The translations under genes were made by a program, and so were the position numbers. From Terriglobia bacterium (lineage in GTDB: Bacteria > Acidobacteriota > Terriglobia > 20CM-2-55-15), in NCBI GenBank assembly GCA_965198225.1, contig CBDAOY010000002.1, positions 17,480-81,479 on the forward strand: a DNA stretch of 64,000 bases. Direction: 5' to 3'. This document shows, in pieces, positions 2,189-57,402 of this stretch. Within the stretch, counting starts at the first letter, position 1; each line of letters starts with the position of its first letter. A model generated the notes under the pieces. It was not told where the DNA came from, made no database searches, and was given only the letters and a program-made list of their open reading frames with translations.

Positions 2189-3208
2189 CTAGAACAACCC
2201 CGACTGCGGCGACTGTTTGAACTCGATCCCCAGGTGTTTGTAGGCGAGCTTTGTGGCCACCCGGCCGCGGGGGGTCCGCTGCAGGAAGCCGATCTGTAGC
2301 AGGAAGGGTTCGTAGATATCTTCGATCGCATCGACTTCTTCGCTCAGAACAGCCGCGATCGTGTTCACGCCGACGGGCCCGCCGTCGAACTTCTCGATGA
2401 TCGCGCGCAGGAGACGGCGGTCGGTTTCATCGAAGCCATGCTCGTCGACGTCGAGCAGGCGGAGGGCGTCCCGAGCGATTTCCGGTGTGATATTGCCGTC
2501 GGCGCGCACTTCGGCGAAATCCCGCGTACGCTTCAGCAGCCGGTTTGCGATACGTGGCGTCCCGCGGGCACGGCGTGCGATTTCGCGCGCACCTTCCTCG
2601 GTGATCGGTGCGTTGAGGATGTCGGCCGATCGACGGATGATGATTTCGAGATCTTCCTGCGTGTAGAAGTCCAAGCGGTGAACGATCCCGAAGCGCGAGC
2701 GCAGCGGCGCCGTGATGAGACCGATGCGTGTTGTCGCGCCGATAAGCGTGAATCGGTTGAGATCCAGCCGATGTGTCCGGGCGCTCGGTCCCTGGCCGAT
2801 GATGATGTCGAGCTTGTAGTCCTCCATCGCGGGATAGAGAATTTCCTCGATACTGGGCTGAAGCCGGTGGATCTCGTCGATGAAGAAGATGTCGGAGCCC
2901 TCGAGGTTCGTCAGGATCGCCGTGAGATCGCCTTTGATCTGAATCAGCGGGCCGGCGGAGGGGCGAAAGTGGGCTCCCATCTCGTTGGCGATGACCGATG
3001 CGAGCGTGGTCTTGCCCAGGCCCGGAGGACCGTAGAGAAGGATGTGATCCAGCGGTTCACCTCGCTTGCGTGCCGCACCTATCGATACCTCGAGGTTTTC
3101 CTTGACCAGCGCCTGGCCGATGTATTCGTTCAGCGTTTTGGGACGCAGCGACAGTTCGAACGGAATCTCTTCCTCGGTCGCGGCCCCGGTAACGATCCTC
3201 TCCGCCAT
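2189..3208 (-). CDS. ruvB: Holliday junction helicase RuvB
   Basis: [35 protein letters not shown]. Confidence 0.98.
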
Positions 3209-3209
3209 C

Positions 3210-3791
3210 TTATCCCTTGGTCAGAATCTTAAGCGTACGCTTGAACAGTTCGTCGAAACCCGGATCAGCGCCGCCGTCGAGCGCTCGCCTGATCGCAGCC
3301 TCGATCATGCCCCGGTTGTAGCCCAGGTTGTCCATCGCCGAGATCACGTCGGTTTCGCTGTCGCTTCGATCCGATTCGTCGACGACGAACTCGCGCAGCT
3401 TATCCTTCAGCTCCAGGAGGATTCGCTCGGCGGTCTTCTTGCCGACACCCGGTATCGTGGTCAGGCGGGCCAGATCACTTTTCTTGATTGACGTGATCAG
3501 GTCCTCGACTGAACTACCCGAGAGGATCGTCAACGCCAGGCGTGGTCCGATGCCGGAAATGCCGGTTAACCGTTCGAAGATCGCCTTTTCCAGGCGGGTG
3601 GCGAAGCCGTAGAGCTGGATAACGTCTTCCCGGACGTGCGTGTAGATGTCGAGGGTGACATCGGAACCAGACTCGGGCGCGGCCGAGTAAGTGGGCATCG
3701 CGATGAAGACCTCGTACCCGACGCCGTTGACATCGACCAGCATCTGCCCCGGTGTCTTCTCGAGCAGTTTCCCGTGCAGCCGGGCGATCAC
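3210..3791 (-). CDS. ruvA: Holliday junction protein RuvA
   Basis: [39 protein letters not shown] HhH motifs. Confidence 0.97.
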
Positions 3792-4057
3792 GTGAAATCC
3801 ACGGCGTCGATCACGCCGACTACCGCCGCGTCGATCGGAGCCATCGTCCGTCCGACCGTCGCAGCGGCCGACCAGCCTTCCTGGACGATGAGCACGCGGT
3901 CACCGACTCCTGCATCGACGCCATCGAGTGCCAGCAGGGTCTTCCCGGCTTCTTCACCGCCGAGGTCGAGCGGTTGAATGAGAAGGATCTTACGACCGTG
4001 ATGGCTCGGTTCCTTCTGTGTCGCCACTACGTTCCCGACGACTCTCGCGATGATCAT
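3788..4057 (-). CDS. BMC pentamer shell protein (EutN/CcmL)
   Basis: [15 protein letters not shown]...[12 protein letters not shown]...[11 protein letters not shown]; start reassigned to ATG at 4057. Confidence 0.92.
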
Positions 4058-4298
4058 AGATATTGTCCACGATGCCGACGATCGTCGCATCGGAAGGAAC
4101 TTCTTCGGGCGAGAACGCGAATGAGGCTTCGCGCCCCCTGCAGACGTAAACTCTCTCGCCGGCCCCGGCGCCGACAGCATCGATTGCGACCACGGACCCT
4201 CCGTCCGAGTCGCGTCGCACGAGCAGCAGTTTCTTACCTTCGAGAGTTTCGTTCTTGGCTGTGGAGACGACGCGGCCGATGACTTGTCCCAGATACAT
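3990..4298 (-). CDS. BMC pentamer shell protein (EutN/CcmL)
   Basis: [15 protein letters not shown]...[13 protein letters not shown]...DATIVGIVD; tail overlaps next gene by 68 nt. Confidence 0.9.
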
Positions 4299-4309
4299 CA
4301 GCGAGTACC

Positions 4310-4576
4310 TCAGTCTTGATAGACTTCGTCGACAATCCCGACGACAGCCGCGTCCACGGGCGTGTCTTTACAACCGGACGCCATCCGTGCGGAACTGCCC
4401 TGGACGACGAGGACTTTTTCATGGAAGCCGGCGGAGACAGTGTCAACAGCGACGAGGTATGTGTTCTCATCGTCGCCATCGGGATTCAAGGGACGGCATA
4501 TCAGCAGCTTTTTGCCTTCCAGGCGCGGATCCTTGCGTGTCGCAACAACCGTGCCTATGATCCTGGCCAGCTGCAT
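4310..4576 (-). CDS. BMC pentamer shell protein (EutN/CcmL)
   Basis: [15 protein letters not shown]...VQGSSAR...[11 protein letters not shown]. Confidence 0.93.
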
Positions 4577-4581
4577 TTTGC

Positions 4582-4887
4582 CTAGCTACTCGCCTTGCCT
4601 ATCGGGAACACATCCTCGAGGTTCGAGTGCGGGCGCGGGATCACGTGAACGCTGATGAGTTCACCGACCCGTCGCGCTGCCGCAGCACCGGCATCGGTCG
4701 CAGCCTTGACCGCGGCAACGTCTCCCCGGACCATGGCGGTGACGTAGCCGGACCCGATCTTTTCCCACCCCATCAGGCTGACCTTGGCTGCTTTCACCAT
4801 CGCGTCGGAAGCTTCGATCAGCGACACCAGACCTCGTGTCTCGATCATGCCTAGAGCTTCACCAATCTGTTCTCCCTCTTGTGCCAT
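4582..4887 (-). CDS. BMC hexamer shell protein (EutM/PduA/CcmK family)
   Basis: [36 protein letters not shown]. Confidence 0.96.
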
Positions 4888-4960
4888 TCAATGCTCCTTG
4901 ATTTAGAAACCGGCGGGACGCCGGTGAGCGCCCGATTTGCGCGGTCCACAGACCGCTCGT

Positions 4961-5740
4961 TCAATTCTGTTTCTCCAAACTCGAAACGACCTGATGGACC
5001 AGATCGATCAGTTCATCCCTAGTGAGAGAGATCGTCTCCGATCTTCCGTCGGTCACTGGACACATCGGGTCCTTCGGACGCGCCTCGTCAGAGGTCTCCA
5101 GGCCGAAGTAGGCCTGTCTCTGAACCCAAAGCTTTTCGACGTCATCGGCTGAGAGCAGTTGCTCCTTACCCAGGATCCGCGTGCAGATGGAAATCTTGGC
5201 GAAATGTTCGACCGTATCCATCCGGTTGTAGGCATCCATGAGGTTGGATCCGTACGTGACGACGCCGTGGTTCGCCATCAGCAGTGCGTCGTAGTTGGAG
5301 ACGTAGGGCCTCAGCCTGTCGGTCAGTTCCGGCGTACCCGGCGTCCCGTATTCGGCAACCGGGATGCAGCCCAGAGCCAGTACGACCTCAGAAATCAACG
5401 CCTTGTTCAACGGGATACCCGCCGCCGCATACGCCGTCGCGGCGGGCGGGTGGCAGTGCACGACAGCGTTGACGTCAGGCCGCAGCTCGTAGACGAGCAG
5501 GTGCATCGCGATCTCACTCGACGCCTTCCGCTCGCCACGGACAGCCCGCCCCTGCAGGTCGACGACGACCGAGTCCTCCGGCCGGACGAAACCCTTGTTG
5601 ATCATCGTCGGCGTACAAATGATCTCGCCATCGGAAAGTCGCGCGCTGAGGTTGCCGTCCGTCGACGCCAGGTACCCTTTCTGGTACGTCAGACGGGAAA
5701 AATCGGCGATCTCCTGCCGCAGTTGATCTTCAGAAGGCAT
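4961..5740 (-). CDS. Class II aldolase/adducin family protein with C-terminal encapsulation peptide
   Basis: DGNLSAR, ASSEIAMH, VHCHPP, LMANHG; amphipathic tail LTRDELIDLVHQVVSSL. Confidence 0.9.
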   Translation of the reverse strand: MPSEDQLRQEIADFSRLTYQKGYLASTDGNLSARLSDGEIICTPTMINKGFVRPEDSVVVDLQGRAVRGERKASSEIAMHLLVYELRPDVNAVVHCHPPAATAYAAAGIPLNKALISEVVLALGCIPVAEYGTPGTPELTDRLRPYVSNYDALLMANHGVVTYGSNLMDAYNRMDTVEHFAKISICTRILGKEQLLSADDVEKLWVQRQAYFGLETSDEARPKDPMCPVTDGRSETISLTRDELIDLVHQVVSSLEKQN

Positions 5741-39868: not shown

Positions 39869-40096
39869 GGGTTACCAGCAGCGAAGGTGTCGAGGCCAGT
39901 TTAACCTAGGAGCGTAAGTCTGTCGGGAATTGGCTCCCTCGAAGCAAGAATCAACAACTTACGAGCCATCCCTGGTCTGTAAGTTGTTGATTCTTGGTTG
40001 CAGACTTCTTATTCCCGACAGGCTCCTAGCAAGACCGGAGGGCCCTGTCTGTACCGGTTTAGTGTTTCCCCGACACCGGGATCGACTAACGCCGAT

Positions 40097-41272
40097 TCAT
40101 TGCTCGAAATCGGGCAGGCCCGACATGCGGACCTGGTGAAGAGGGTTGGTTGTGCGAACATGAATCTTGCCCGACTCGTAAAGGCTGGATTCGGACGCAT
40201 AGAATCCGATTGAGTACTGTGCGCGGATCTCCGCTGCGATTGCATCAAACACGGAATCAATCTCGGCAGTCCAGTCCCCGATGGCCTGGGTCACGTCTAA
40301 CCCATATGTTTTTCCACCACTCTCTCCCGTCAGTGTCGCCATCATGTCACTCGGATACCAAAAGATCTGATCTGGAGTGTAGTAGTCCGCACGCGGGCAA
40401 GTACCGGAGGTGGTCCGAGTTGTCCAAAGAGGAGTGGTCCGAGTTATCCTACGAGTTTTGCTGGAGAAGCTCGGGCGCATCTGCTCGACCAGGCTCGGTG
40501 TCGGTGTCGGGCGCCCGGCCAACATGGCGCGTCTGCGGACAGCAATCCCCGGTTTGAGTTCCTCTTCGACTTCCTCTAGGGGGCCGGCCTGAAGGAGAAT
40601 CCCATAGATAACTACACCGGAGTCTCGGATTTCCGTCCGAAACTGACCTTTGGTTGTGCAGTGAAATCCCGTGATACCGTCACTGATGACGACCAATGCT
40701 TTCTTGTAGTGCTGGCCACGCTTGTGTTTGTCCAGTACATCAACAATCGAGTCCGGGATGTTGGTTGATCTCTTGTAGAACTCCACTTCCCGTAACGCGT
40801 CGTGCATTCTATCGACGTCTCCCGTAAAGTCCTGCAGGAGATCCGCTTCCTGATCAAACTTCATCAAGAAGAATTCATCTCCGCTACGCATGCTTTCAAC
40901 GAACTGTTCAGCTGCGGCCAGAGCTGAGACCCACTTGTTCTTCTGGATCATGCTGCCGCTCGTGTCGATTACAATTCCAAGCGTCACAGGAACGTCCTGA
41001 CTCACGCTCTCAATCCCAAAGTGCTCGATGTTCTGCGGCACCCCGTCGATCTCCACGACGAAATCCTACACATCGAGGTCCGACACCGGTACACCTTCAC
41101 TGTCGGTCACTGTGACGACCAGTTGTTTGAGATTGACGTCCACACGAATGAGTTGTTGCGCGTTGATCCAACTAGGAAGGGCCACCGTCAGCAGCCCGGA
41201 AGTAACAATCATTGTTAAAAGGTAGCGGCTCAGGGTGACTCGATCGGACCCGATTTGTAAGTCGAACTTCAT
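40097..41272 (-). pseudogene. Secreted VWA-domain protein with an in-frame TAG at 41066-41068
   Basis: IRVDVNLKQLVVTVTD..DLDV*DFVVEIDG; MIDAS DTSGSM; ISDG; IRAQYSIGF. Confidence 0.8.
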
Positions 41273-42297
41273 GCACCCTCCTTACCTGCGAATCGCCTCG
41301 AACGTTGCGACCAACAGGGACCGTCAGGCTGGCAGGTCGCGCCGGAGTCTCGGAAATCTCGGATTGTCGCGATCCACGGGCGCAACTCCGCAGGCACACA
41401 CAACCCCGTGTTGCGAATGTCGAACACTCCGAGGCGGGTCAGGTTCGCTAATTCGTGCGGGATCGCACCGCTCAACTCATTGTCGGCGAGAGACAGCCTC
41501 TGGAGGTTGGCCAATCCGCCCAGCTCCACCGGGATCGCTCCACTCAATGTATTCCCGGCGAGATCCAGATCGTCGAGGTTGGTCAAGCCGCCCAGCTCCA
41601 CCGGGATCGCTCCGCTCAACGTATTCCCGTTGAGAGACACTTCCTCGAGGTTGGCCAATCCGCCCAACGTAGCCGGGATCGGCCCGCTCAATTCATTCCA
41701 GGAAAGAGTCAGATCCTCGAGGTAGGTCAAGTTGCTCAACTCCGCGGGGATCGGACCGCTCAATTCATTTTCGAAGAGAGACAGCCTCTGGAGGTTGGCC
41801 AAGCCGCCCAACTCCGCCGGGATCGCACCGCTCAACTCATTGCTGGAGAGAGACAGCCTCTGGAGGTTGGCCAAGCCGCTCAGCTCCACCGGGATCGCTC
41901 CGCTCAACTCATTGCTGAAGAGATCCAGCGTCCGGAGGTTGGCCAAGCCGCCCAACTCCACCGGGATCGCACCGCTCAACTCATTGCTGGAGAGAGACAG
42001 GCGCGTAACGCGTCCGGCCGCGTCCGTGGTGACCCCATGCCACGCCGAGAGGGGTTCGCCGGTTTTCCAGTTCGTGCTGGTTATCCAGTTCGAACCGTCC
42101 GTGGCTTCGTAAAGCGCCTCCAAAGCTGCCCTGTCGGTCGCCCCGCTCTCCTGCGCCAAGACGTTGCCGACGGACAACCCGTTCACTGCGGCCATACCCC
42201 AAGATGCGCCGACGAGCAGGCCGGCGGTGGCCGCAACAAGCATGCCGGCTCCGATGCCAACCCCGATTGAGCGCTCCGTGAACACTGTAACTTTCAT
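41269..42297 (-). CDS. Plant-type leucine-rich repeat protein
   Basis: DRAALEALYEATDG..W cap; about 8 copies of a 24-aa LxxNxLSGAIPxELGGLANL repeat (72-bp DNA repeats). Confidence 0.9.
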   Translation of the reverse strand: MKVTVFTERSIGVGIGAGMLVAATAGLLVGASWGMAAVNGLSVGNVLAQESGATDRAALEALYEATDGSNWITSTNWKTGEPLSAWHGVTTDAAGRVTRLSLSSNELSGAIPVELGGLANLRTLDLFSNELSGAIPVELSGLANLQRLSLSSNELSGAIPAELGGLANLQRLSLFENELSGPIPAELSNLTYLEDLTLSWNELSGPIPATLGGLANLEEVSLNGNTLSGAIPVELGGLTNLDDLDLAGNTLSGAIPVELGGLANLQRLSLADNELSGAIPHELANLTRLGVFDIRNTGLCVPAELRPWIATIRDFRDSGATCQPDGPCWSQRSRRFAGKEGA

Positions 42298-43112
42298 TCG
42301 TCAACCCCCTCCCAACAGCAGTCGATGTTCAGCATTTTAACGCCGATTCCATTCTACCCGGGAGCAACGTCTGTCGAGTTCCGGTGCGGGCTAAAAGAGG
42401 GTACGGCAGGAATGATGGATGATTCGTTCGCCAAGACAAACCCCGCAGAGAACCTGCTCCTACGCACCACTCCCGCGTCAAGAATCCGTCTCAGAATAAA
42501 GGAATCAAAAGGGCGCTGGCAGGATCCCGGAGGACGTCCAGAATTTCCGGAAGTCTGTGAAACCCCGCCGGTTTTCGAGGCATCGTGCGGGCTCCGCCTC
42601 TACCACATGTGAGGGCGCGATCCGGCATTATAGGATTTTCGGGAAACGGGGGGGCCGGACTGGTTATGACCGATAAACGCCATGATTCTATCGGAGATCG
42701 TCAGGCACCGACAGTGACAGAAAATGATGCCGGGCGATGTCGGATAGAATGCTTTGAAGTGCGCCGGAGGCGCGTTAAGAGGATGCGGGCCAGCGCCTAT
42801 GGGTTGTCAATTGTAACCGGCTTGTAATGAAAGGCTTACGACTTTGTGTCGAAAAGTGACTCACGTTGGGGCGTGATTTGCGAAATACCTTCATCGTCTG
42901 ATCGCACCAGACCATACCACACATGTAGCATCCGAGCGCCTGCGGCTTAGTTCAAAGGACATTATCATTCATATAGAATGGCTCCTGACCGATCCGGCGA
43001 TCTCTAGGTCCGAAACCTATGTCGCCTCGGCACCGTTGCCTGTGTCGGGAGTATCAGAAGCAACATTTGCGAGCGGCGGTGGCGCGGCCGGAACGCCGCC
43101 TGCTTCACGCCT

Positions 43113-44624
43113 TCACCCGGCCCGTAGCGAGTCTCGCGCCTCGACAATGGCCCGAAGCTTGGCTTCGGCGACGCGGGCCGACGCGACGGGATTGTCGGCG
43201 AAGGTGGCGAAACCGCAGTCCGGCGTCAGCAGGACGCGCTCGGAGCCGAACAGGTCCATGGCGCGGAAAATCCGCCGCCGGATGTCCTCCACCGGCTCCA
43301 CGGCGTCGACCTTCGGGTTGACGACGCCCACGCCGATGCGCTTCTCGTCCGGGATCGCCCGGAGCACCTCGGCCTCGCCCGCACGCTCGGTGCACAGCTC
43401 CAGGTACACAACCCCGACGTCGACGCTACGTAGCGCGGCCATCAACGGGCGGTAGTCGCCGGCCAGGGCGACGGACTCGTCGCGGGTCCAGTTGCCCCGG
43501 CAGACATGCAGCCCCAGCCGCTCCTCGGGCAGACCCGCGGTCACCGCGTTCAGCAGACCGACGGCGAAGTCGAGCTCAGGGCCGGGCTCGAGCCGCTCGC
43601 TCAACGCACCGCACATGAAACTACGCGTCCGGCGCGCGCTTCCGAAGACGACCTCGGTCAACACCGGTTCGTCGAGCTGCACGATCGCGGCGCCTGACGC
43701 CAACAGAAAATGCAGTTCCTCGCGCAGCACCCGGACAACGTCACTGGCGAGTTCCTCCCGGGTTTCGTACGGGCGGTCCGTGAGGCAGTCCAGCCACATC
43801 GTGCGCGTGAGCAGGTAGGGGCCGGGCAGCGCCACCTTGACGGGCCGGCCGGCCTCCGCGCGGGCAAAATCGAGCTCGTGGACGGCGAGGGGGCGGCCGC
43901 GGCCCAAGCGGCCGTAGGCAACCGGGTGCCGGACCTCCGCGGCGGGCACGTCCAGCGCACGGAGATCCCGCTCGAAAGCCTCCGGGTCGTCTACCATCGC
44001 CGCAAGGTCGTCCAACGGTATGAGCTGGCAGTTGTCCGGCCGGCCGCCGGCGAAGCTGGCGTAGCTGTCCCGCCGCTGCTCGCCGTCGGTCACGACATCG
44101 ACCCCCGCCCGCAACTGCGCGTCCAGACACAGGCGCACCGCGTCGTCGGCCGTGGACTGAAAATCCGCTTCATCCAGCCGACCCTCCAGGTGGTCGTGCA
44201 TGGCCTGGAGCATCCATCGCGGACGGGGCCAACTGCCAACGCCCATCACCGACAGCGGCAGGATCTCCGGCGCGGGGGAGGGAGAGGGCAGCGACTCGGG
44301 CACCGTGACCCCCACCCGGATCGGCGCGCCGTGGGGCGCTTCGGCTGGCGCCCGCGCGCGCTCGGCGTAGGGACCCTTGCTGATCAGGAAGCTGCGCTGC
44401 CGTCCCTGGCGGGTCCACGACACCAGCGCGTTCCCCGTCAACCGGCACCAGGCCGGCAACTCGACCTCGACCGTCGAGTCGGTGGACAGGATCTCCAGCA
44501 GGTCGCCGGGTTTCAGGGGGTCGATGTGCCGGCGGATCAGGAGCAGCAGCCCGCCGCCGCAGTCCAGGTCGCCGCCGTTGAAACGGCCGTCGGGCGTATG
44601 CGCGTGGCGTTCGATGGGTTCCAT
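43113..44624 (-). CDS. TusA-domain / MetE-C-terminal-like (cobalamin-independent methionine synthase type II fold) fusion
   Basis: N-term GDLDCGGGLLL..ELPAWCRLTG; VGSWPRP, TDGEQRR, QLDEP, HVCRGN, E, TPDCGF Zn ligands. Confidence 0.88.
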   Translation of the reverse strand: MEPIERHAHTPDGRFNGGDLDCGGGLLLLIRRHIDPLKPGDLLEILSTDSTVEVELPAWCRLTGNALVSWTRQGRQRSFLISKGPYAERARAPAEAPHGAPIRVGVTVPESLPSPSPAPEILPLSVMGVGSWPRPRWMLQAMHDHLEGRLDEADFQSTADDAVRLCLDAQLRAGVDVVTDGEQRRDSYASFAGGRPDNCQLIPLDDLAAMVDDPEAFERDLRALDVPAAEVRHPVAYGRLGRGRPLAVHELDFARAEAGRPVKVALPGPYLLTRTMWLDCLTDRPYETREELASDVVRVLREELHFLLASGAAIVQLDEPVLTEVVFGSARRTRSFMCGALSERLEPGPELDFAVGLLNAVTAGLPEERLGLHVCRGNWTRDESVALAGDYRPLMAALRSVDVGVVYLELCTERAGEAEVLRAIPDEKRIGVGVVNPKVDAVEPVEDIRRRIFRAMDLFGSERVLLTPDCGFATFADNPVASARVAEAKLRAIVEARDSLRAG

Positions 44625-44658
44625 CAAGCGGTCCGCGCGCGGAGCATCGAAACGCGGA

Positions 44659-45021
44659 TCAAAAGCTGACGCAGGGGGCGCCGCCGGAGAGGAACTCGAC
44701 CAGGACTGCGCCGCCGACGATCTTCGCGCCGTCGACCAGGTTGTTCTCGTCCAACCCGCGCTTCTTGAAGCACGGCGCACACACGTAAACGATGCCTCCT
44801 GCCTCGACGAAGTTGTCCATCAGCTCCTTGAGGGGCATGAAACCCTCTTCGTGAACGTCGTCGGCGAACCCTTTCTGGGACCATCGGACGCCTTCGGTGG
44901 TCAAGAAGACGACCGTTTCCTTTTCCGAGCCGACTGCGGCGTTGCCAATGACGAAGGCCACCGTGGACTTGTCAGTGTCGTCCTTCGCGCAGGTGAGACT
45001 CACGCAGAATTTTCCAGCCAT
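44659..45021 (-). CDS. DsrE-family protein
   Basis: VFLTTEGV, YVCAPCFKKRGL, IVGG. Confidence 0.85.
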   Translation of the reverse strand: MAGKFCVSLTCAKDDTDKSTVAFVIGNAAVGSEKETVVFLTTEGVRWSQKGFADDVHEEGFMPLKELMDNFVEAGGIVYVCAPCFKKRGLDENNLVDGAKIVGGAVLVEFLSGGAPCVSF

Positions 45022-45054
45022 TCGCTGTTCTTCCCTTTCCGGCCGATCCCGCGA

Positions 45055-45348
45055 TCAGCCGTTCTTCTGTTCGATCCAGTAATGGGGATGCGCGGCGCGA
45101 AGCAGGCGGCGTCCGGTCATCCGGCACCACGCGGGCAGGTCTTCGGGCGCGCCCAGGTCCTGGGAGGTCAGCTTGAGAACGTCTCCGGGACGGAGCTTTC
45201 GCATTCGCAAACGCAGCAGGACGATGACCTCGCCGCATCCCATGTGGCCGGCGTCCCACTCGTCGGCGACGGGCAGATAGGTCGCGGCGACGCCAACCGC
45301 GTCCGCCTCGACTTCACCCACAGGCTGTGATCGCCCATCCGGCAGCAT
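45055..45348 (-). CDS. TusA/SirA-family sulfur carrier
   Basis: WDAGHMGCGE..LRPGDVLKLTSQDLGAPEDLPAWCRMTG. Confidence 0.85.
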   Translation of the reverse strand: MLPDGRSQPVGEVEADAVGVAATYLPVADEWDAGHMGCGEVIVLLRLRMRKLRPGDVLKLTSQDLGAPEDLPAWCRMTGRRLLRAAHPHYWIEQKNG

Positions 45349-45526
45349 CCGGGCAATCTACATCGGCGGGATTGCGCCGTCAACCGTCCCCGGGCTCGGA
45401 CATGTCGAACAAGCACTCCATGGGGTGCAATTAAACAAAGGCACCCCATCCGTCATCGCGACCACGGCTAACCTTCCCCGGATTCACAATCGCCGTTTTC
45501 ACGAATTGCCATCGTGGCGGCGGGGT

Positions 45527-46141
45527 CTACTCGTCCTTCAGTTGCTCCCAGCTCCTCGGTTTCCATACCCGAGCCAAGCGTTTCGCTTTGATGACTTGTG
45601 AAGCGGTCATCTTCGCTGCCACTTCATTTCTCGATGATCGGTATTCCGCCGCCGCCTCGGGAAGCGGGCGTGCAGCGGCCAATTTCAGCCACTTGTAGGC
45701 TTGGATGTAATTCCGGGACACGCCCTCGCCATTGGCGTACATGATGCCGAGGTCGTGTTGTGCGGAGTCGGCCCCCTGCTCAGCGGCCAGCCGATACCAC
45801 CGCACGGCCTCCCGCTTGTCCTGAGGAACGCCGACTCCTGTTTCGTACCTGAAGCCGAGGAGAGATTGTGCGTAGGCGTACCCCTGCTCGGCCGCTAGGC
45901 GGAACCACCGCACGGCCTCCTGTTCATCAACGGTCACGCCCTCGCCGTCGGCGTACATGATACCGAGGTTGAATTGTGCTCTGGCGCTTCCCTGCTCCGC
46001 TGCCAAGCGATACCACTTCAAAGATTCGTGGTAATCCCGGTGAACGCCCTCACCGTCGGCGTACATGGCCCCGAGGGTTAATCGGGCTGTGGTGTCCCCT
46101 TGCTCGGCGGCCAACCGCAGTTGTTCGATATCTTTGTTCAC
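45527..46141 (-). CDS. Sel1-repeat protein
   Basis: Repeated AAEQG..AQFNLG.MY..GEGV..D..EAV.WYR. Confidence 0.92.
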   Translation of the reverse strand: MNKDIEQLRLAAEQGDTTARLTLGAMYADGEGVHRDYHESLKWYRLAAEQGSARAQFNLGIMYADGEGVTVDEQEAVRWFRLAAEQGYAYAQSLLGFRYETGVGVPQDKREAVRWYRLAAEQGADSAQHDLGIMYANGEGVSRNYIQAYKWLKLAAARPLPEAAAEYRSSRNEVAAKMTASQVIKAKRLARVWKPRSWEQLKDE

Positions 46142-46325
46142 AGAATGGGTGCTCTACGTTTCATCCGGCTGTCCCCCAATTCGTTACCCATCCGAGGACT
46201 TCCCCGCTCCCCTCCCGTTCAGCTCAGACCATACTGGCGCATCCGGCCAGGAACATGCTGTTGAGCAGCGCCATCAGAACCACGGTGGAGACTATTCGCA
46301 AGACAACCGCACTGTCAGAGTCGAA

Positions 46326-47120
46326 TCAAAGCCGGAATCGGATGCCTGCCTCAATCTGATCGGAATCAATCGGCGCCCCCCGGCTGGAGCGAAAGCGATA
46401 ACCAAATCGGAAATCCACGCGCTGGGCGGCCCGAACCAAGAAGCCCGCCATGATCTGATAGGAAAACCGGGAATCCTCATGTTCGGCTGTGGTCGTGAAG
46501 GGTAGGTGCAGGGGTGGGAGCGAGGGAACAAAGTTTTCTGGAATAACAGAGCCGGGAAAAGCCTCGAAGTCGAATGGACTGGTAATGACTGGGTAACTAA
46601 AGCCGGGTGGATACGACAGGGTAGAGGTGACGGTTCTATCGTGGAAGAAAGCGCCCAGACCGAACCCAACATAGGGACTCACTCTCCATTCGGGATAGCG
46701 GTAGTAAAAATTCCCCATGAGGGACGGGGTCTTGATCTCTCCGTCAATCTCTACGGTCGGTAAGGGAAAGGAAATGCTAGTAAAACGAGCACTGGAACTT
46801 TCAAAAGACCCCGCCAATGCCCCCGTAGTAAAACCTGTGGGAACGCCGGAGGGATCGCCGATGCCGACTTGCTGGTATCCCCCTTCGATCTCAATCGAGA
46901 TGCCCTCGTTGAAGGCGTAGCCGAAGGCCGCGGTAAAAGCGCCCCCAGCTTTCAAACCGAGACCCGTTGAGGTCTTCGGGTCGTATGGGAAAACACCCGA
47001 TCCAGCAACAGCGAGATAGAACTGCCCGTTTCCGTCAATCGGTTGCGCAGCCTGTTGCGCAGTTCCAGGCAGAGCAAGCTGCGCCAGAGCGATAGCAAGG
47101 CCGGCGAGCGTCTTGGTCAA
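46326..47120 (-). CDS. Outer-membrane beta-barrel protein (OmpA/Opa-like)
   Basis: Signal peptide; SPYVGFGLG; FSYQIMAG; FGYRF; C-terminal AGIRFRL; start uncertain. Confidence 0.75.
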   Translation of the reverse strand: MTKTLAGLAIALAQLALPGTAQQAAQPIDGNGQFYLAVAGSGVFPYDPKTSTGLGLKAGGAFTAAFGYAFNEGISIEIEGGYQQVGIGDPSGVPTGFTTGALAGSFESSSARFTSISFPLPTVEIDGEIKTPSLMGNFYYRYPEWRVSPYVGFGLGAFFHDRTVTSTLSYPPGFSYPVITSPFDFEAFPGSVIPENFVPSLPPLHLPFTTTAEHEDSRFSYQIMAGFLVRAAQRVDFRFGYRFRSSRGAPIDSDQIEAGIRFRL

Positions 47121-47497
47121 ACTTTTTTCTCTCTCGTTCGTTAGCTGGCCTTGACCCGTCCGCTGATGGCTTCGCGCAACACTTCCTGGTGCACCATGCG
47201 TTTCACGCAGTTGAGCAACCTCGGCCCGAATCTCCAGGATCTCAGCTTGCAACCTGCTAGTCGCGTTGAGGAGCACCCCCGCGAGTGCGCCGCCAACGCT
47301 GAGAATGGCGATGATTCTCCACGATGCTGGACTCGACCCAGTCACAGAGTCTGGGATACTTTTGTTGCCACTTCTTCGCCATGCGGCCAGGTCCCGCCGG
47401 GACGCTGACCGATCCCAGGATCTCGAGCCCGCCCTCCGCTCAGGTCAGGCAATATCATACATATTCTGGCGGTAGGTGGCTCCGTCTCGAAGAAATC

Positions 47498-47860
47498 TCA
47501 AGACGGGGGCTGCCGCTGGCCGCTCTTGATCGAAGACCCCCTATCGGGGTCCTCTCCGGCGAAAGGCCACGGCGCGAACGCCGGGATAGCCTCGCCGGTC
47601 ATCCACTGCTGCAGGACACGCTGCCAGCCCGCCTCGGGGGTGGCGGTCCAAGCGTCCAGGTCCGCATCCATCGTCTTGCGGTGGACTTCCGCCCGGAGCG
47701 CGATGAGGCGCGTGAACTCGTCTTCGAGCTGCGCCAAGTGGTCGATCTGCTTCCGGGTTTCCTCACCGCGTTCCAACTCGTCGGCCAGCTCCATGAGTCG
47801 GGCCGTCATTGCCTTGGTGATCGCGGCCCGTTGTTCGTCAATGGATGTTGCGTTCGCCAT
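47498..47860 (-). CDS. Hypothetical helical protein behind structured leader A
   Basis: GGAGG RBS from the repeat; 120 aa. Confidence 0.65.
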   Translation of the reverse strand: MANATSIDEQRAAITKAMTARLMELADELERGEETRKQIDHLAQLEDEFTRLIALRAEVHRKTMDADLDAWTATPEAGWQRVLQQWMTGEAIPAFAPWPFAGEDPDRGSSIKSGQRQPPS

Positions 47861-48103
47861 GATGTGTTGTCCTCCGAAGTGAAAGGGTTTGATCTGTGTC
47901 GCTCACAAAGACACGCGACACCGGGAAACCCTGTGGAGGGGGACAAGTGCCCCCGCGACCGGTGACGGCCGGGCCGAACAAGAGCGCCACGCATGAGAGA
48001 CCCCGCGAAGCGGATTCCCGGTCTGGCCTGGGGGATGCTTCGGCCAAGCCCAAGGCACCGGCAAAAGGCCAAGCGCACACTGGCGAACCACGCCCCATGA
48101 TCC
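47861..48103 (-). repeat. Structured ~240-nt leader, copy A
   Basis: Shares GGATCATG, CCAGACCGGGAA..CGC..TCGCGGGGTCT and GTGAGCGACA..ATCAAACCCTT..GGAGG..ATGGCG with copies B and C. Confidence 0.88.
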
Positions 48104-48241
48104 GCGACGCGATCAGAGGGACAGGGCCGGATGAGGCGGTGAGGGGAAAGCTACGCGAGAGCAGGTTAGAGACACACTAGACACGGGCTGTCGGACATGT
48201 CTGCAAAGTGTTTCCAACCGGAAGGCTATGGGCCCTGCCCG

Positions 48242-48740
48242 TAGCCACGGTGGGGTGGCTACGGAAATAGAGCATAGATCAGGACAAGAGGAACGCCTGC
48301 CAGGATCGCCACCTGAAGGCTGAACGCCATCGGCAACATCCGCTCCTTGCGTTGCTCTTCAAGCATCCGGGAGAGTGTTCGAACCTGGCGAGCCGCCTCG
48401 GCTGAATCTTCGCGGGACCTCGGCCTGTTCCTGAGCGCTTGTCAACATGGCTTGCAAGCGTTCCTCAACGGAGAGCAAGGCTGGGTCCGGATTCTTCCCG
48501 CTCGATGTTCCTGTCCCGCTGCCTGTCGCCGTCAATGCTGACGACGGCGCGGAGTTCCTCCTGCTGCCGCCATATCCATATCGCGTGCTCCAGCCGGTCT
48601 ATCTCATCCGATATTGGTTTGATCTCTTTTCGCATCCAGTCCGGGTCCGTCTCCTTGCCGGTAGCCTTCCGGGCCTGAAACAAGTTGGCCCGCTGCTTGA
48701 TGAAGAGAAAGAGTTTGGTTTCCATTTCGATGATGCTCAT
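48242..48740 (-). pseudogene. Frameshifted coiled-coil protein with C-terminal TM anchor
   Basis: MSIIEMETKLF... continues in shifted frames to FSLQVAILAGVPLVLIYALFP*. Confidence 0.45.
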
Positions 48741-48904
48741 TGGGTACTCCGTTGTTCGTCCGGCGTTGATCTCGCCGGACACGTCGAGTTCAACGGGAAA
48801 AGTTCTGAATCGGGTTACAGGCACGGGCTGTCGGGCAGGTCTCGAAAGTGTCTCGAACCGGGTTGGAAAGGACGGCGGGGCTGTTCCCCGCCGTCCGCAT
48901 TGAA

Positions 48905-49207
48905 TTATTCCCCTCTCGCGTCGTCCTCCACGATGTAGGAGTCTGCGACAACTTCCTGCCGCTCGTCAACCGGCGCAGCCTTCGCGGCGGCGTCGGACCG
49001 GAAGATTTCCGAGTGGGCCTGGTCGGCCAGTTTCGCCAACACCAGGAGGTCGTCCCTCCCGAAGCTCTACGTGGACTTCCAGGTATCGCCGTCCCTGTAG
49101 AGACGGCCAAAGGTGACATTCGCCCGGGGGCGCTCGTCGGTTCCGTTCTGCCAAATCGTCGCCTTGACGCGTCCGATCCGGATTTCGTTGATGGGTTGAT
49201 TCGCCAT
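48905..49207 (-). pseudogene. PC4/Whirly-like small nucleic-acid-binding protein with in-frame TAG (49067-49069)
   Basis: MANQPINEIRIGRVKATIWQN..NVTFGRLYRDGDTWKST*SFGRDDLLVLAKLADQAH. Confidence 0.65.
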
Positions 49208-49448
49208 GATGTTTTTCCTCCTGAGAGTTAAGGGTTTGATCTTTGTCGCTCACCCGAGGAAGGCGAGAAAGTCAAACCCGGGATTGAAGGGGATGAGTCG
49301 AAGCCGCGCGGGGGACGGGCCAGCACGGCTACCAGCAACTCGACTGACAGACCCCGCGAAGGCGGGTTCCCGGTCTGGCCGGAGAGGTGCGCCGGACCAC
49401 CGGACCCCGCAGAGGCAAGCGGAGAATGGCGACACGCATCCATGATCC
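49208..49448 (-). repeat. Structured ~240-nt leader, copy B
   Basis: Same conserved blocks; most diverged copy. Confidence 0.85.
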
Positions 49449-49824
49449 GGGGCGTCAGAGCGATTGGCATGGAACCGCTCCGCGCGCGCGACGACCTAGG
49501 GGTATCCGGACGGCGACACCTGGAAGTCCAGCATGAGGGATCCGCGGGACGCCGGGTGAAACGGCCATGCTCCGAACGCCCTGTCTTCTGCCGTGCGGGC
49601 CCGAACCGACACGGGCCACGGCGACGATGGAGTGGGCGACGCCAAGATGTTGCGGGTGGCATAATCCGGCCGGACGCGGGCGGCTCCACAAGCCCCGTCG
49701 GCGGAGCTGCATCCAAGCGGCTACAGGCGGGGAGTCGGACGTGTCTCGGACGTGTCTCCAGGCGATGATCCCGCCGGGCCCCTCGATCTACGGCGGGGAT
49801 AAGCGCCCCGCCGCGCTACGGGGC

Positions 49825-50086
49825 CTACTTCCCTGCCCCGGCCTCGAGTTTCTCCTGTGCCACGTCTTCCAACGAAAGCTCGAAGACGAAACGATGGACG
49901 CGGTCGGCCACAACCGACAGCAGGAGCAGGTCATCGATCCCAAAGTTCCGCAATCGACCGGATTTGATGCCGTGGGTATAGAGACGGTAGAAGCTGACGC
50001 CGGGGCGTAGCGTCGGCCCCGTGATCCCAAACCGTCGCGCCGACGTTGCCGAGCTGGATTTCTTTGATTCGTGTTTGTTCCGCCAT
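49825..50086 (-). pseudogene. Second PC4-like paralog, frameshift near 50003
   Basis: MAEQTRIKEIQLGNVGATVWD / VSFYRLY..NFGIDDLLLLSVVADRVH. Confidence 0.6.
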
Positions 50087-51252: not shown

Positions 51253-51816
51253 TCAAAGGAATCGGGGACTGTCTCGTCGATACTCGCGATATACCTGTCC
51301 GTATTGCTCTTCCAACCAGGATTCCTCGGCTAGCGGAGCCATAAGGAAAACAAGAATGAGGAGCGCATGGGTGATCCAAAGGAGGAGCGAGTTCGCAATT
51401 ATGCTCACACCGACGAAGCAGATGATATCACCCACGTATTGCGGGTTACGGGTGAACCGGTAGGGTCCAGAGCCAACGAATCCGCCCTTCAGCCCTGAAG
51501 TATTCATCACGCCAAGCGTGACGACTCCCCAAGCTGCCAAGAACCCTCCGAGCAAGGCGACTGGAATACCGAGAAGGAACCGGAGATCGCTCCTAAAGAC
51601 CCAGGAATTCCAGTCTAAGAACAGCAGCGCCGTGTTGAGCCCTAAGACGGAATAGAATCCGACCCAAGTCAGAACATGCTGCCATGAACGCTGATGCGGC
51701 GGTGGCCAAATTCGTTTATTGGGGAGGGCAACGGACCAGACTGTAGCCGTCAACGTGATGAAGAGGATGCCGCAGTTGATGGCTAAGAGGGTGGCAATAA
51801 GATTGGGCGTTGGCAT
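51253..51816 (-). CDS. ICMT/PEMT-family membrane methyltransferase
   Basis: GPYRFTRNPQYVG; EESWLEEQYG..Y..YRR..PRF. Confidence 0.88.
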   Translation of the reverse strand: MPTPNLIATLLAINCGILFITLTATVWSVALPNKRIWPPPHQRSWQHVLTWVGFYSVLGLNTALLFLDWNSWVFRSDLRFLLGIPVALLGGFLAAWGVVTLGVMNTSGLKGGFVGSGPYRFTRNPQYVGDIICFVGVSIIANSLLLWITHALLILVFLMAPLAEESWLEEQYGQVYREYRRDSPRFL

Positions 51817-53105: not shown

Positions 53106-53334
53106 TTGTGCTCCTCACATTTGGGTTATATACATGCTTGACGGCATGGCCGTCGATGGGAATATTAGCGTCGTGTGCGCGATAATAAAAACTTCCGGGA
53201 CCTCACTGGAAGTCAAAGAGCCTAATTCTTCACCCAACCTGTTCCAGAAATTCTTACAATACAATAGAATAAATACTTCTATTAATTAATTTCAAACGAA
53301 CTTAATATAGTATTTGTATTACGGCCTCTGTCGC

Positions 53335-54102
53335 ATGCGCATAATCGCCATTACGAATCAGAAAGGTGGTACCTGCAAGACCACAACCGCTGTCAACCTT
53401 GCCGCAGCTCTTGGGGCCCGTGGAAAGCGCGTACTACTGATCGACCTCGACCCACAAGCTAGCAGCTCTGCTTGGCTTGCCGTCAGGGATGGGGGAAAGG
53501 GGTTGTTCGAGGCCTTCAGTGAAGAGCAAGATCTCAGTAAACTTGTTGTCTCGACACAAGTGCCCGGCGTTGATCTGATCCCATCTTCCCGCTGGTTGGT
53601 TGGAATCGAGAAGACCCTTTCCGGAGAAATCGGAGCGGAGATGATGCTCCGTAAGCGCGTGGAGGCTTTGCAGTCGAGGAGGTGGAACTACCTCTTCCTC
53701 GATTGTCCCCCTTCGGTGGGTTTTCTGTCTTTGGCCGCACTCATTGCCGCCAAAGATGTCCTTGTTCCGGTGGAAGTCTCCTCCATGGCCATGGCAGGCG
53801 TCGCTTCCCTAATAGGGACCCTTGATAAAGTTCGTGAGCGGCTCAATCCAAGACTCAATCTCTACGGTGTTCTCCCTTGCCGAGTGGATATGCGTACACG
53901 CATCGGCCGCGACATTGTTGCTTCACTTAAGAAACACTTTGGCGAAAAAGTCTTCAAGTCGGCAATTCGAGAAACTGTGCGCCTCAAGGAAGCCTGGTCG
54001 CACGCTCAACCGGTAACGACCTACGCTCCAAAAAGCCGAGCGGCTGCGGATTTTCTTAGCCTGGCAGACGAGGTTCTGCAGCGGAATCAAAGAGGTAAAT
54101 AA
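53335..54102 (+). CDS. parA: ParA/Soj partition ATPase
   Basis: NQKGGTCKTTT, LIDLDPQ, DCPPS, IRETVRLKEA. Confidence 0.93.
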   Translation: MRIIAITNQKGGTCKTTTAVNLAAALGARGKRVLLIDLDPQASSSAWLAVRDGGKGLFEAFSEEQDLSKLVVSTQVPGVDLIPSSRWLVGIEKTLSGEIGAEMMLRKRVEALQSRRWNYLFLDCPPSVGFLSLAALIAAKDVLVPVEVSSMAMAGVASLIGTLDKVRERLNPRLNLYGVLPCRVDMRTRIGRDIVASLKKHFGEKVFKSAIRETVRLKEAWSHAQPVTTYAPKSRAAADFLSLADEVLQRNQRGK

Positions 54103-55087: not shown

Positions 55088-55843
55088 CTACCTCTTTGGG
55101 ACTGGACTCGGCAAGCCCGTTTTAGTCCTCCAACTCCGAGGGCCGCATTTGAGGATGTGGCCGTGATGGAGCAGCCGGTCCAGCATGGCTGTGACGGCGG
55201 CGCTATCACCCAGTAGTTTTCCCCAGTCTTGGACGGGTCGATTCGATGTCAGTAACGTACTGGTCCGTTCATAGCGTCGCATCACGATCTCGAGGAGTTC
55301 CTCTGCTGCAGTGGGAGGAAGCTTCCGCATCCCCAGATCGTCGATGATCAGCAGCGGGACCGTCGCCAAAGCTTCCATGCACTCCTTTCGAGTACCGTCA
55401 ATGGTGGCTTCGGCGATGTCGTCGAGAAGCGCATGAGTTTCACGGTAGACGACCCGATAGCCCTGCTCAATCGCAGCCAAGCCGATGGCCTGAGCCAGAT
55501 GACTCTTGCCGGTGCCAGGAGGACCGAGAAACAAGGCATCGTCGTGCCTGGAGATGAAGGCGCCCGTCGCCAGGTCGAAGACCAGACTACGATTCATCTT
55601 CTTGTTGAAAGTAAAGTCGAAGGAGTCGAGCGTCTTCTGGGGATCGCGGAACCGGGCCTGTTTCCGACGCCGTTCCAACAACCGGATGCTGCGACGGTCC
55701 AGTTCATCCGAGACCAGACGAGAGACCAAGTCGATCGGCGCCATGGCTTCGGTCTGGGCCTGGTGGAGGCGTGTTTCCAACACCTCGGCAATGCCGCCGA
55801 GCCGGAGTTGTCGGAGAGCCCGCTGGAGTTCGATCAGATTCAT
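55088..55843 (-). CDS. istB: IS21 helper ATPase IstB
   Basis: GPPGTGKSHLA, IIDDLG, TSNR, LDRLLHH. Confidence 0.95.
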   Translation of the reverse strand: MNLIELQRALRQLRLGGIAEVLETRLHQAQTEAMAPIDLVSRLVSDELDRRSIRLLERRRKQARFRDPQKTLDSFDFTFNKKMNRSLVFDLATGAFISRHDDALFLGPPGTGKSHLAQAIGLAAIEQGYRVVYRETHALLDDIAEATIDGTRKECMEALATVPLLIIDDLGMRKLPPTAAEELLEIVMRRYERTSTLLTSNRPVQDWGKLLGDSAAVTAMLDRLLHHGHILKCGPRSWRTKTGLPSPVPKR

Positions 55844-57402
55844 GAGTGTTCCTGCTCCTGGATTTTGAGGTTGATGAGATCGCGATACTGAGTCAGTTCG
55901 CGAATGAGAGGATCGACCTGACGCAGGGCGAGTGGAGGTCGCCGCTCCAGATAGCGGCGGACGAAACGATACTCGTAGACGTGGAGTTCCAGTGCCGCAG
56001 CCGAAGCATCCTCCACGGCGGAGACACCGTACTTCTTGGCCAGGGAGAGCACACCCAGGATGCGGCGGACCGCAGCTTCCCCTTGTCGGCGGTGAATGGC
56101 GTCACAGAGTGTGCCGATGTGGGTGCCAGCGCGGCGGGCTCGGGCCAGCAGTTGCACCGTCGTTAACGGGGTTTTCTTCGGGTTGTCTTCAGCACGGACA
56201 CGGTATCCACCCCGCTTCTGGCGGACATGCTCGCGGAGGAGTTGATAGGTGTTTGGGTCCAGGATCCGGACGTGAAGCGTGTCCCACTGGACCTTGACAC
56301 CCCGTCCGATCCAGCCCGGCGGTACACTGTAATAGGCGGCTTCGACTTCGACGCAACCGTCGAGATGGACGACACGTTCACCGAATTGGTAATAGCGAAA
56401 CGGTTCGATCGGCAGCGGCTTAAGAGATGGTTTCTCTTCGGCGAACATGGCCGCCACCTGCCGCTTGGTCGTGCCGTGGATGCGGGTGTCGGCCCATCGG
56501 ACTTCCCAGCGATCCAGATACCCCTGGGCCTGGTCGAGGCTCTCGAAGCGCTGTCCCTTCAATGGGGTCTTCTGGGCGTGCCCGACACCGGATTCGACTT
56601 TGCCTTTGCGGTCTGGATCGCGCACCCGGCATGGCATGGCCACCACGCCGTAATGGGTCAGGACATCTCGAAACAACGGATTCAGGGTGGGGTCGTAATG
56701 GTCCGGGACGATCACGCCTTCGCGCAGGTTATCCAGCACGATGAGGCGGGGAGTGCCGCCGAGTCGGCGGAACGCGGTCTCGTGCAACTGGGCCCAGATG
56801 CGGGAACTGGACTTGAACGTCAGCAGCCGGACCGATTTGCGGCTGTAGCCCAACGTCATCACGAACAGCCGCGTCCGTCGGTACTTGCCCGTCTTCGGAT
56901 CCCGGACCATCGGTCCGGTCCCGTAGTCGACCTGCGCTTCCTCTCCAGCTCCGGTCTGGATGATTCCGACCGCTTCCGGGGATCGCACTCCCCGGAGTTT
57001 GCGAACGAAACGCTTGACCGATTCGTAGCTGCCGACAAAACCGTGATCCGTGACCAGGTCCTGCCAGATCGCCATCGCGTTGCGGCCACGCTCCAGCGCC
57101 TGTTGGATGGTCTCCCGGTACGGCTCGCAGGAACTGCCCGACGGTGGGCTTGGAGGGGGAGCCGACGACTCTGCCGAGACCGGATTCTCGGCCTCCGGGT
57201 CGGTGGTCACTTCGTTGGCCGGTTTTGCCGGTCGCCGGCCCCAACTCCCGGGCGGCCGAATGGGGATTCCGGCCGCTCTCAGATACGCACTGGCCGTCTC
57301 ACGACGCACGCCGGTGGTCTGTTCGATCCGACGCAGCGGCCATCCAAGCCGCCCCAATGCAACAACTTGCTCTCTCTTTTCTGTGCTCAAGACATTGCTC
57401 AT
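55840..57402 (-). CDS. istA: IS21 transposase IstA
   Basis: EAQVDYG, VLDNL, KGKVESGV, RIHGTT; ATGA overlap with istB. Confidence 0.95.
   Translation of the reverse strand: MSNVLSTEKREQVVALGRLGWPLRRIEQTTGVRRETASAYLRAAGIPIRPPGSWGRRPAKPANEVTTDPEAENPVSAESSAPPPSPPSGSSCEPYRETIQQALERGRNAMAIWQDLVTDHGFVGSYESVKRFVRKLRGVRSPEAVGIIQTGAGEEAQVDYGTGPMVRDPKTGKYRRTRLFVMTLGYSRKSVRLLTFKSSSRIWAQLHETAFRRLGGTPRLIVLDNLREGVIVPDHYDPTLNPLFRDVLTHYGVVAMPCRVRDPDRKGKVESGVGHAQKTPLKGQRFESLDQAQGYLDRWEVRWADTRIHGTTKRQVAAMFAEEKPSLKPLPIEPFRYYQFGERVVHLDGCVEVEAAYYSVPPGWIGRGVKVQWDTLHVRILDPNTYQLLREHVRQKRGGYRVRAEDNPKKTPLTTVQLLARARRAGTHIGTLCDAIHRRQGEAAVRRILGVLSLAKKYGVSAVEDASAAALELHVYEYRFVRRYLERRPPLALRQVDPLIRELTQYRDLINLKIQEQEHS

Follow-up and report, generated by a model that had tools for sequence, protein, structure and literature searches.

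Positions 43113–45348 of the window, the whole 64,000-nucleotide (nt) stretch of Terriglobia bacterium DNA analysed here (NCBI GenBank assembly GCA_965198225.1, contig CBDAOY010000002.1, positions 17,480 to 81,479 of the forward strand), carry on the minus strand three co-directional open reading frames (ORFs) that are separated by intergenic gaps of 33 and 34 nt and encode a standalone TusA-like carrier, a DsrE-like protein, and a fusion of a second TusA-like domain to a MetE-like enzyme (Table 1). A sequence-only reading of this DNA had proposed a three-gene operon here, and all three ORFs were recovered at the positions it gave. The fusion ORF as listed runs from 44780 to 43113, with a GTG start at 44780 that lies within the DsrE gene; because the first residues following the ATG at 44624 are conserved in an alignment of 42 sequences, this ATG was taken as the start, yielding a TusA::Meth_synt_2 protein of 503 amino acids (aa; 44624–43113). 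Two promoter-like sites occur in 42600–45700, compared with 0.4 expected from shuffled sequences. No study of a TusA–DsrE–TusA/MetE-like arrangement was found in the literature, in keeping with its earlier description as uncharacterised. The window's own genome, designated G000, is 97% complete.

Table 1. Features of the three-gene cassette, in window coordinates. pLDDT, predicted local distance difference test.
Feature	Position	Strand	Remarks
Sigma-70-like promoter match TTGACG-17-TAGATT	45355–45383	−	Directly upstream of first gene; consensus match alone
Standalone TusA-like carrier gene, 97 aa, CG for CPxP	45055–45348	−	Pfam TusA; Cys38 codon 45237–45235; Cys75
DsrE-like gene, 120 aa	44659–45021	−	Pfam DsrE; Cys81-x-x-Cys84 codons 44781–44779, 44772–44770; Cys6
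TusA-like N-terminal domain of fusion, aa 1–85	44370–44624	−	Cys22 codon 44561–44559; Cys60
Pro/Ala-rich linker of fusion, aa 86–120	44265–44369	−	pLDDT <50 for residues 90–107; residues 83–125 without secondary structure
MetE-like single (beta/alpha)8 barrel, aa 121–503 plus stop	43113–44264	−	Meth_synt_2; zinc ligands and homocysteine-binding residues
Inserted hairpin SFMCGALSER, aa 334–343	43596–43625	−	Invariant Cys338 codon 43613–43611; clade hallmark

Relatives of the fusion are encoded by 394 of 454 candidate stretches (tblastn, E ≤ 1e-3, one genome per species), and the best 80 loci were analysed; a word-index search returned at least 120 proteins of 498–702 aa at 73–88% identity. The co-occurrence of the three genes elsewhere, on which the earlier proposal depended, was found: the order TusA–DsrE–fusion is retained in 78 of the 80 loci, and the remaining two (L074 and L086) begin at the fusion at a contig end. 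In L082, DsrE and the fusion are separated by a transporter. Taxon labels of the 80 loci span at least six phyla (Acidobacteria, Dehalococcoidia/Chloroflexota, Rokubacteria/Methylomirabilota, Burkholderiales, Verrucomicrobia, and Planctomycetota), with fusion and gene order both preserved over six phyla at 62–88% identity. Clustering of all locus ORFs reveals no universal fourth gene, and no other neighbour is common to more than 16 of 89 loci. The flanking ORFs are heterogeneous, including peptidases, permeases, ZnuA, BNR proteins, and two phage integrases in a Pfam census that covers 125 of 148 picked ORFs (the other 23 were scanned separately), and no methionine-pathway, dsr/sox/hdr, cysteine desulfurase, rhodanese, SelD, or SelA gene was detected among the 125. 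The fused form is present in 25 of 251 sampled Dehalococcoidia, and the single occurrence among 301 sampled genomes of the window's phylum is G000 itself; the cassette was not found in three genomes of the same genus, and a copy 89% identical exists in another genus of the same family. This patchy occurrence, with absence within the genus and a copy in another, indicates that the three genes are a self-contained, horizontally mobile module. Phage-type integrase genes adjoin the cassette in two Dehalococcoidia loci (L011:3650-4474 and L021:9064-9891), which fits mobility.

Both TusA-like units are recognised by the Pfam TusA model (PF01206; cut-off 28.6), the standalone protein at 31.1 bits and the fused domain at 29.7 bits, and neither reaches the cut-off of 78 for the TusA equivalog NF001423 (28.7 and 20.5 bits, respectively). 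The CPxP motif of TusA is replaced by GCGE in the standalone protein (GCGEV, Cys38) and by DCGG in the fused domain (DCGGG, Cys22), confirming the CG motif noted from the sequence. The shared LPAWCRxTG motif that had been singled out with it is also present in both units, as DLPAWCRMTG (Cys75) and ELPAWCRLTG (Cys60), but it is not distinctive: TusA-family models match across the LPAWC stretch, the family consensus presumably carries the motif itself, and LPAWC is an ordinary TusA feature. The DsrE-like protein matches Pfam DsrE (PF02635) at 50.7 bits (cut-off 22.7) and has the reported CxxC, in the form VCAPC, with Cys81 aligned to a cysteine of the solved DsrE-like protein 3MC3. Conservation of these cysteines is nearly complete: Cys38 of the standalone TusA is found in 78 of 78 sequences and Cys75 in 77 of 78; Cys81, Cys84, and Cys6 of DsrE in 80, 79, and 79 of 80; and Cys22 in all 79 sequences that hold the fused domain, where Cys60 occurs in 76 of 82 with Ser in the other six. 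TusA and DsrE families are persulfide or thiosulfonate carriers. Their sulfur-carrier role in dissimilatory sulfur oxidation is described in PMC11094781, and the present pair resembles those Dsr/sHdr relays in using the same two carrier families with conserved active-site cysteines. Unlike them, it has no flanking dsr, hdr, sox, or rhodanese genes, possesses the extra cysteine of CxxC, and ends at a MetE-fold enzyme.

The barrel of the fusion matches Pfam Meth_synt_2 at 93.3 bits. Because the match of Meth_synt_1 is below threshold (18.5 bits, cut-off 27) and overlaps this same catalytic barrel, the protein has no folate-binding half, and at 63 bits it falls far short of the cut-off of the canonical MetE model TIGR01371 (929.95); the view that this is not a classical MetE is thereby upheld. 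So is that of an intact zinc site, since the motifs HVC (His373, codon 43508–43506; Cys375, 43502–43500), YLE (Glu409, 43400–43398), and PDC (Cys470, 43217–43215) correspond to the zinc ligands in an alignment with T. maritima MetE. Three further residues, Ser131, Glu182, and Asp318, align with those through which T. maritima MetE and MesD (3RPD) hold homocysteine by its carboxyl and amino groups. His373, Cys375, and Cys470 are present in 82 of 82 fused sequences; in a 42-row alignment, Asp318 is invariant and conservation of Glu409, Ser131, and Glu182 reaches at least 90%. All good-quality members retain both the zinc ligands H/C/E/C and the homocysteine residues S/E/D. The same seven residues were used by Price et al. 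(2021) to call MesA–D methionine synthases, according to the main text of that paper (PMC7857596).

Despite this active site, the enzyme scores below every curated methionine-synthase model tested. The MesD model NF006589 gives 98.6 bits against a cut-off of 392, compared with 700.7 bits for a control, the MesX-adjacent MesD of genome G652; scores and cut-offs for the curated single-barrel models, which are read as a group without pairing each to one Mes family, are 154/406 for PRK04326, 89/258 for PRK00957, 48/399 for PRK01207, and 20.5/387 for PRK06052. An AlphaFold model of the fusion (mean pLDDT 76, predicted template modelling score 0.73) has 3RPD (MesD) as its best structural match, with a template modelling score of 0.78 on the target and MetE structures next, and 3RPD is also the best sequence match. 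In a maximum-likelihood tree of 27 of 32 sequences (five poor-quality rows were dropped), the fused proteins form a 100/100 clade nested in a 100/99 clade with unfused relatives that accompany OsmC-like proteins, apart from MesD, MetE, and PRK06520-like proteins. Among single-barrel ("core") MetE-like zinc enzymes, the enzyme is therefore well supported as a member of a separate clade. The MesX model (DUF1852, PF08908), which does find MesX in G652, has no match in G000, no MesX was detected among the flanking ORFs scanned, and no corrinoid protein was found among the cassette neighbours.

Comparison with the MesD/MesX system (Price et al., 2021, PMC7857596; 3RPD) shows a single barrel, the absence of a folate domain, and identical zinc ligands and homocysteine triad in common, along with dependence on an accessory protein, occurrence in aerobes, and usual presence beside MetH or MetE; the main text of that paper has MesD coexisting with MetH or MetE in most genomes. 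Unlike MesD, the enzyme falls in a separate clade, carries a FMC hairpin, and has TusA, DsrE, or OsmC rather than DUF1852 as partners, none of which (TusA, DsrE, or OsmC) is mentioned in the main text of PMC7857596. With MesA, MesB, and MesC, which depend on methylcobalamin or a corrinoid protein, it shares the fold, the zinc-thiolate logic, and the lack of a folate domain, whereas it has no linked corrinoid protein, scores far below the curated single-barrel cut-offs, and belongs to hosts of mostly aerobic lineages, as judged from taxon labels.

The hairpin is an insertion after the DEP strand, with strands 334–337 and 340–343 in the AlphaFold model and the motif (S/T)FMC(G/A)AL. All 82 fused sequences have its Cys338, as do the unfused OsmC-type relatives, and the insertion is absent from MesD, MetE, and PRK06520-like paralogues; the hairpin with its invariant Cys338 is thus the hallmark of the clade. 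HMMER aligns a cysteine of 3RPD to Cys338, and this was rejected as a MesD feature since the MesD of G652 has Thr at this position and lacks the insertion. In a single example, the unfused relative of genome G084, a TGA occupies the Cys338 position (FM-U-ATL). G084 also encodes SelB, and 11 nt past the TGA a hairpin starts; this candidate selenocysteine insertion sequence folds no better than shuffled sequence (z = −1.08) and was discarded as support, so that the reading of the TGA as probable selenocysteine (Sec) is based on position, conservation, and the presence of SelB. A Cys/Sec pair at this position indicates that Cys338 is reactive. The loop that contains it follows strand 6 and, from TIM-barrel topology, would sit at the mouth of the active site; the carrier proteins more likely make contact at Cys338 than at zinc.

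A second in-frame TGA was observed in a different branch of the fold. A PRK06520-like MetE paralogue has TGA at the zinc-ligand Cys of HxC (FHL-U-RGNQGSRW) in G002 and G003, which belong to the same genus as the window's genome, and in Dehalococcoidia G041 and G042, and may be a MetE-fold selenoprotein; the copy of G000 itself (contig C7:339484-340512, L090; relatives at L092, L093, L094, and L095) has Cys at HxC. The main text of a selenoproteome review (2026, PMC13188914) contains nothing on PF01717, MetE, or methionine synthase.

Relatives of the enzyme have alternative partners. G084 has a four-gene version (L098, G084:C9:187500-194000, ~2639–5206) consisting of TusA, DsrE, a TusA::OsmC fusion, and the unfused enzyme, and the TusA half of TusA::OsmC is 52% identical to the fused TusA domain of the cassette. 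Since the TusA domain thus moves between the enzyme and OsmC, it is the direct partner of the enzyme. In a second unfused type, the sole partner is a downstream OsmC-like gene, and neither TusA nor DsrE occurs within 6 kb; the OsmC-like partners have one conserved cysteine. In five of the 80 loci, from several phyla (L053, L056, L063, L078, and L082), an ATP-binding cassette (ABC) importer lies directly upstream of or inside the cassette, with a binding protein that matches HtxB, which binds hypophosphite (5ME4, E 1e-85; for example L078:3504-5959). A luciferase-like monooxygenase gene is located just downstream in L056 and L078 and upstream in L053.

The reading judged most probable, at roughly 40%, is that the enzyme methylates homocysteine independently of folate and B12, with the cysteine relay carrying either the methyl supply or the by-product. 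Methionine synthesis was chosen because, to our knowledge, homocysteine methylation is the reaction of all characterised enzymes that have these seven residues. In the proposed mechanism, zinc would bind L-homocysteine as its thiolate, the mode used by MetE and MesD, and Cys338 of the hairpin would lie over the barrel mouth, at the point where the methyl group would normally arrive on folate or a corrinoid protein. By exchange along free TusA, DsrE, fused TusA, and Cys338, the relay would deliver the group reacting with homocysteine on Cys338 or remove it from there, and homocysteine would be S-methylated to methionine without folate or B12. The cysteine relay would then take the part that MesX plays for MesD, either by supplying a methyl-bearing species or by carrying off a sulfur or selenium remnant.

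The distribution of MetH and MetE fits a methionine synthase. Neither enzyme was found in cassette genomes G006, G016, and G022 (98–100% complete) or in G043, a 34th cassette genome without full-length MetH; G000 has a full MetH, and most relatives without the cassette have MetH. Several results weigh against this reading nonetheless. MetH is present in 21 of 33 cassette genomes checked, a further one has MetE, and nine more have a C-terminal-half match resembling split MetE, while the four genomes without MetH or MetE hold several other Meth_synt_2 paralogues that could serve. Rfam searches of window positions 40000–50000 (E ≤ 1) and of 10 of the 80 loci (gathering thresholds) returned only tRNAs and no riboswitch, whether for S-adenosylmethionine (SAM) or for B12, and the cassette has no linked methyl donor or gene that would generate methyl groups. 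In 10 of the 25 Dehalococcoidia genomes that have the fused form, an unfused form is present as well, which suggests that the two are not redundant. Cys/Sec pairs are typical of redox or chalcogen-transfer sites and not of known methyl transfer, and we infer the placement of Cys338 relative to the zinc from topology alone. Separately from these counts, the Dehalococcoidia chromosomes G043 and G044 show a large expansion of the family, with 20–23 separate Meth_synt_2 matches per 2.6–2.7 Mb genome.

The principal alternative, which is possible though doubtful, is trafficking of sulfur or selenium. The relay would bring sulfane sulfur or selenium, as persulfide or perselenide, to Cys338 at a homocysteine-shaped site, and the zinc enzyme would join it to an amino-acid skeleton to give homocysteine, selenohomocysteine, or a homocysteine per(seleno)sulfide, or would strip the chalcogen from a compound of this kind for SelD. 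The known carrier function of the TusA and DsrE families, the Sec variant of Cys338, and the HtxB-like small-oxyanion importer joined to the cassette in five loci are all in accord with such a role. We know of no MetE-fold enzyme that forms or breaks a C–S bond except by alkyl transfer, which argues to the contrary, as does the lack of cysteine desulfurase, rhodanese, SelD, and SelA genes among the flanking ORFs scanned. A precedent for a link to selenium is YedF (FdhU; Lin et al., 2015), a SirA/TusA and DsrE(CGxC) fusion statistically tied to SelD (PMC5322559), which the cassette resembles in its pair of TusA-like and CxxC DsrE-like proteins and in its tendency to SelD-positive genomes. Unlike YedF, the two proteins are here encoded by separate genes, have CG for CPxP, and are always coupled to the MetE-like enzyme, and the YedF model TIGR03527 matches neither small protein even at E ≤ 10, which counts against trafficking.

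Genome-wide evidence on selenium is divided. Among 251 sampled Dehalococcoidia, SelD is present in 40 of 40 genomes with the enzyme family and in 149 of 211 others (naive Fisher p = 3.7e-6, uncorrected for kinship or genome size and confounded by both), whereas among 281 sampled Burkholderiales it is present in 6 of 8 cassette genomes and 207 of 273 others (p = 0.70), with G698 lacking SelD and G732 having a fragment only; the background counts include three genomes flagged as unpublished (G580, G612, and G791). SelB occurs within ~6 kb of the cassette, on either side, in at least 17 of the 80 loci. This adjacency was rejected as an argument for selenium, as it reflects lineage synteny: the neighbours are all in Dehalococcoidia, in a HemW–SelB–NurA housekeeping block. 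The selenium link of the cassette is accordingly suggestive and not general, and the earlier suggestion of selenium has mixed support, with enrichment of SelD in the Dehalococcoidia and none in the Burkholderiales. SelD is also present in G000 (G000:C9:419380-420303, L096), where its gene contains one in-frame TGA and probably encodes a selenoprotein itself.

A thiol-driven reductase is an unlikely explanation, in which Cys338 or Sec would attack an oxidised methionine or homocysteine derivative (methionine sulfoxide, S-sulfohomocysteine, or homocysteine disulfide) at the zinc/amino-acid site, and TusA, DsrE(CxxC), or OsmC would resolve and recycle the disulfide. Exchange of Cys and Sec at one catalytic residue is a signature of redox selenoproteins, the CxxC of DsrE is a typical thiol-disulfide motif, and OsmC-like proteins, with which relatives are paired, are a peroxidase family; DsrE-like UxxC, OsmC-like, and MsrA proteins are listed among selenoproteins in the main text of PMC13188914. 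A DCC1-like thiol-disulfide oxidoreductase gene is next to the closest Acidobacterial locus and is also in line with a reductase. Retention of the full H/C/E/C zinc site, which serves thiolate activation in every characterised relative, is difficult to reconcile with this chemistry, the OsmC-like partners keep only a single conserved cysteine, no thioredoxin or reductase is linked, and no TusA protein is known to reduce disulfides.

A methyl shuttle that needs no cofactor, salvages the chalcogen as well, and feeds sulfur or selenium assimilation, including SelD, appears quite unlikely. Cys338 (or Sec) would capture a methyl-thiol or methyl-selenol as a mixed dichalcogenide Cys-S-S(e)-CH3, with dimethyl disulfide, methanethiol, methylselenol, or an imported methyl-seleninate-like anion as possible sources. 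Zinc-activated homocysteine would take the methyl group to become methionine, and the per(seleno)sulfide left on Cys338 would pass to fused TusA, DsrE, free TusA, and finally sulfur and selenium assimilation, including SelD.

Still less probable is the proposal, close to that of the sequence-only reading, that the zinc site acts on a protein-bound substrate by activating a persulfide or thiol on the TusA domain itself, which the enzyme would alkylate or methylate. The TusA domain with its invariant Cys22 is fused through a flexible 35-residue linker, the rigid CPxP is replaced by CG, and the fold accepts non-amino-acid thiols, as in epoxyalkane:coenzyme M (CoM) transferase, which has this fold and uses CoM, such a thiol, as substrate. 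However, the conserved triad that binds the homocysteine amino and carboxyl groups would be needless if a protein cysteine filled the site, the TusA domain is on another polypeptide in relatives, and Cys338 is left unexplained. The earlier preference for a protein-bound sulfur over homocysteine is therefore not sustained, and a free amino-acid thiol is more likely the zinc ligand.

That the enzyme is an ordinary, redundant core methionine synthase beside TusA and DsrE genes of an unrelated sulfur relay, as the presence of all catalytic residues and one public record naming a homologue methionine synthase might suggest, is highly improbable given the preservation of the fusion and gene order across six phyla, the invariant carrier cysteines, and the failure to detect MesX in G000 or either MesX or a corrinoid protein among the flanking ORFs scanned.

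In the wider window, the cassette stretch is G+C-rich (63.5–65%) and is flanked by surface-protein genes. A ParA-like ATPase and an rve/Mu-type transposase (53314–54102 and 55840–57402) are located 8–12 kb from the cassette, and together with the raised G+C at 42–46 kb they point to a variable region. A small membrane methyltransferase of the PEMT/ICMT family is encoded at 51253–51816, with no link to the cassette shown.

The methyl source of MesD/MesX, a folate- and B12-independent methionine synthase system of aerobes, was unsolved as of 2021 according to the main text of PMC7857596. If the cassette enzyme is a homocysteine methyltransferase of this kind, the cassette would provide a second accessory system for the same active site, built from well-understood carriers, together with a Cys/Sec residue that pinpoints the place of the chemistry; the question is directly testable with three small proteins. 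The methyl shuttle, if true, would be a new way to do the methyl-transfer job of cobalamin as well as a new selenium supply route. The module is abundant, and it is relevant to how bacteria of soil, freshwater, sponges, and oceans depend on B12 and selenium.

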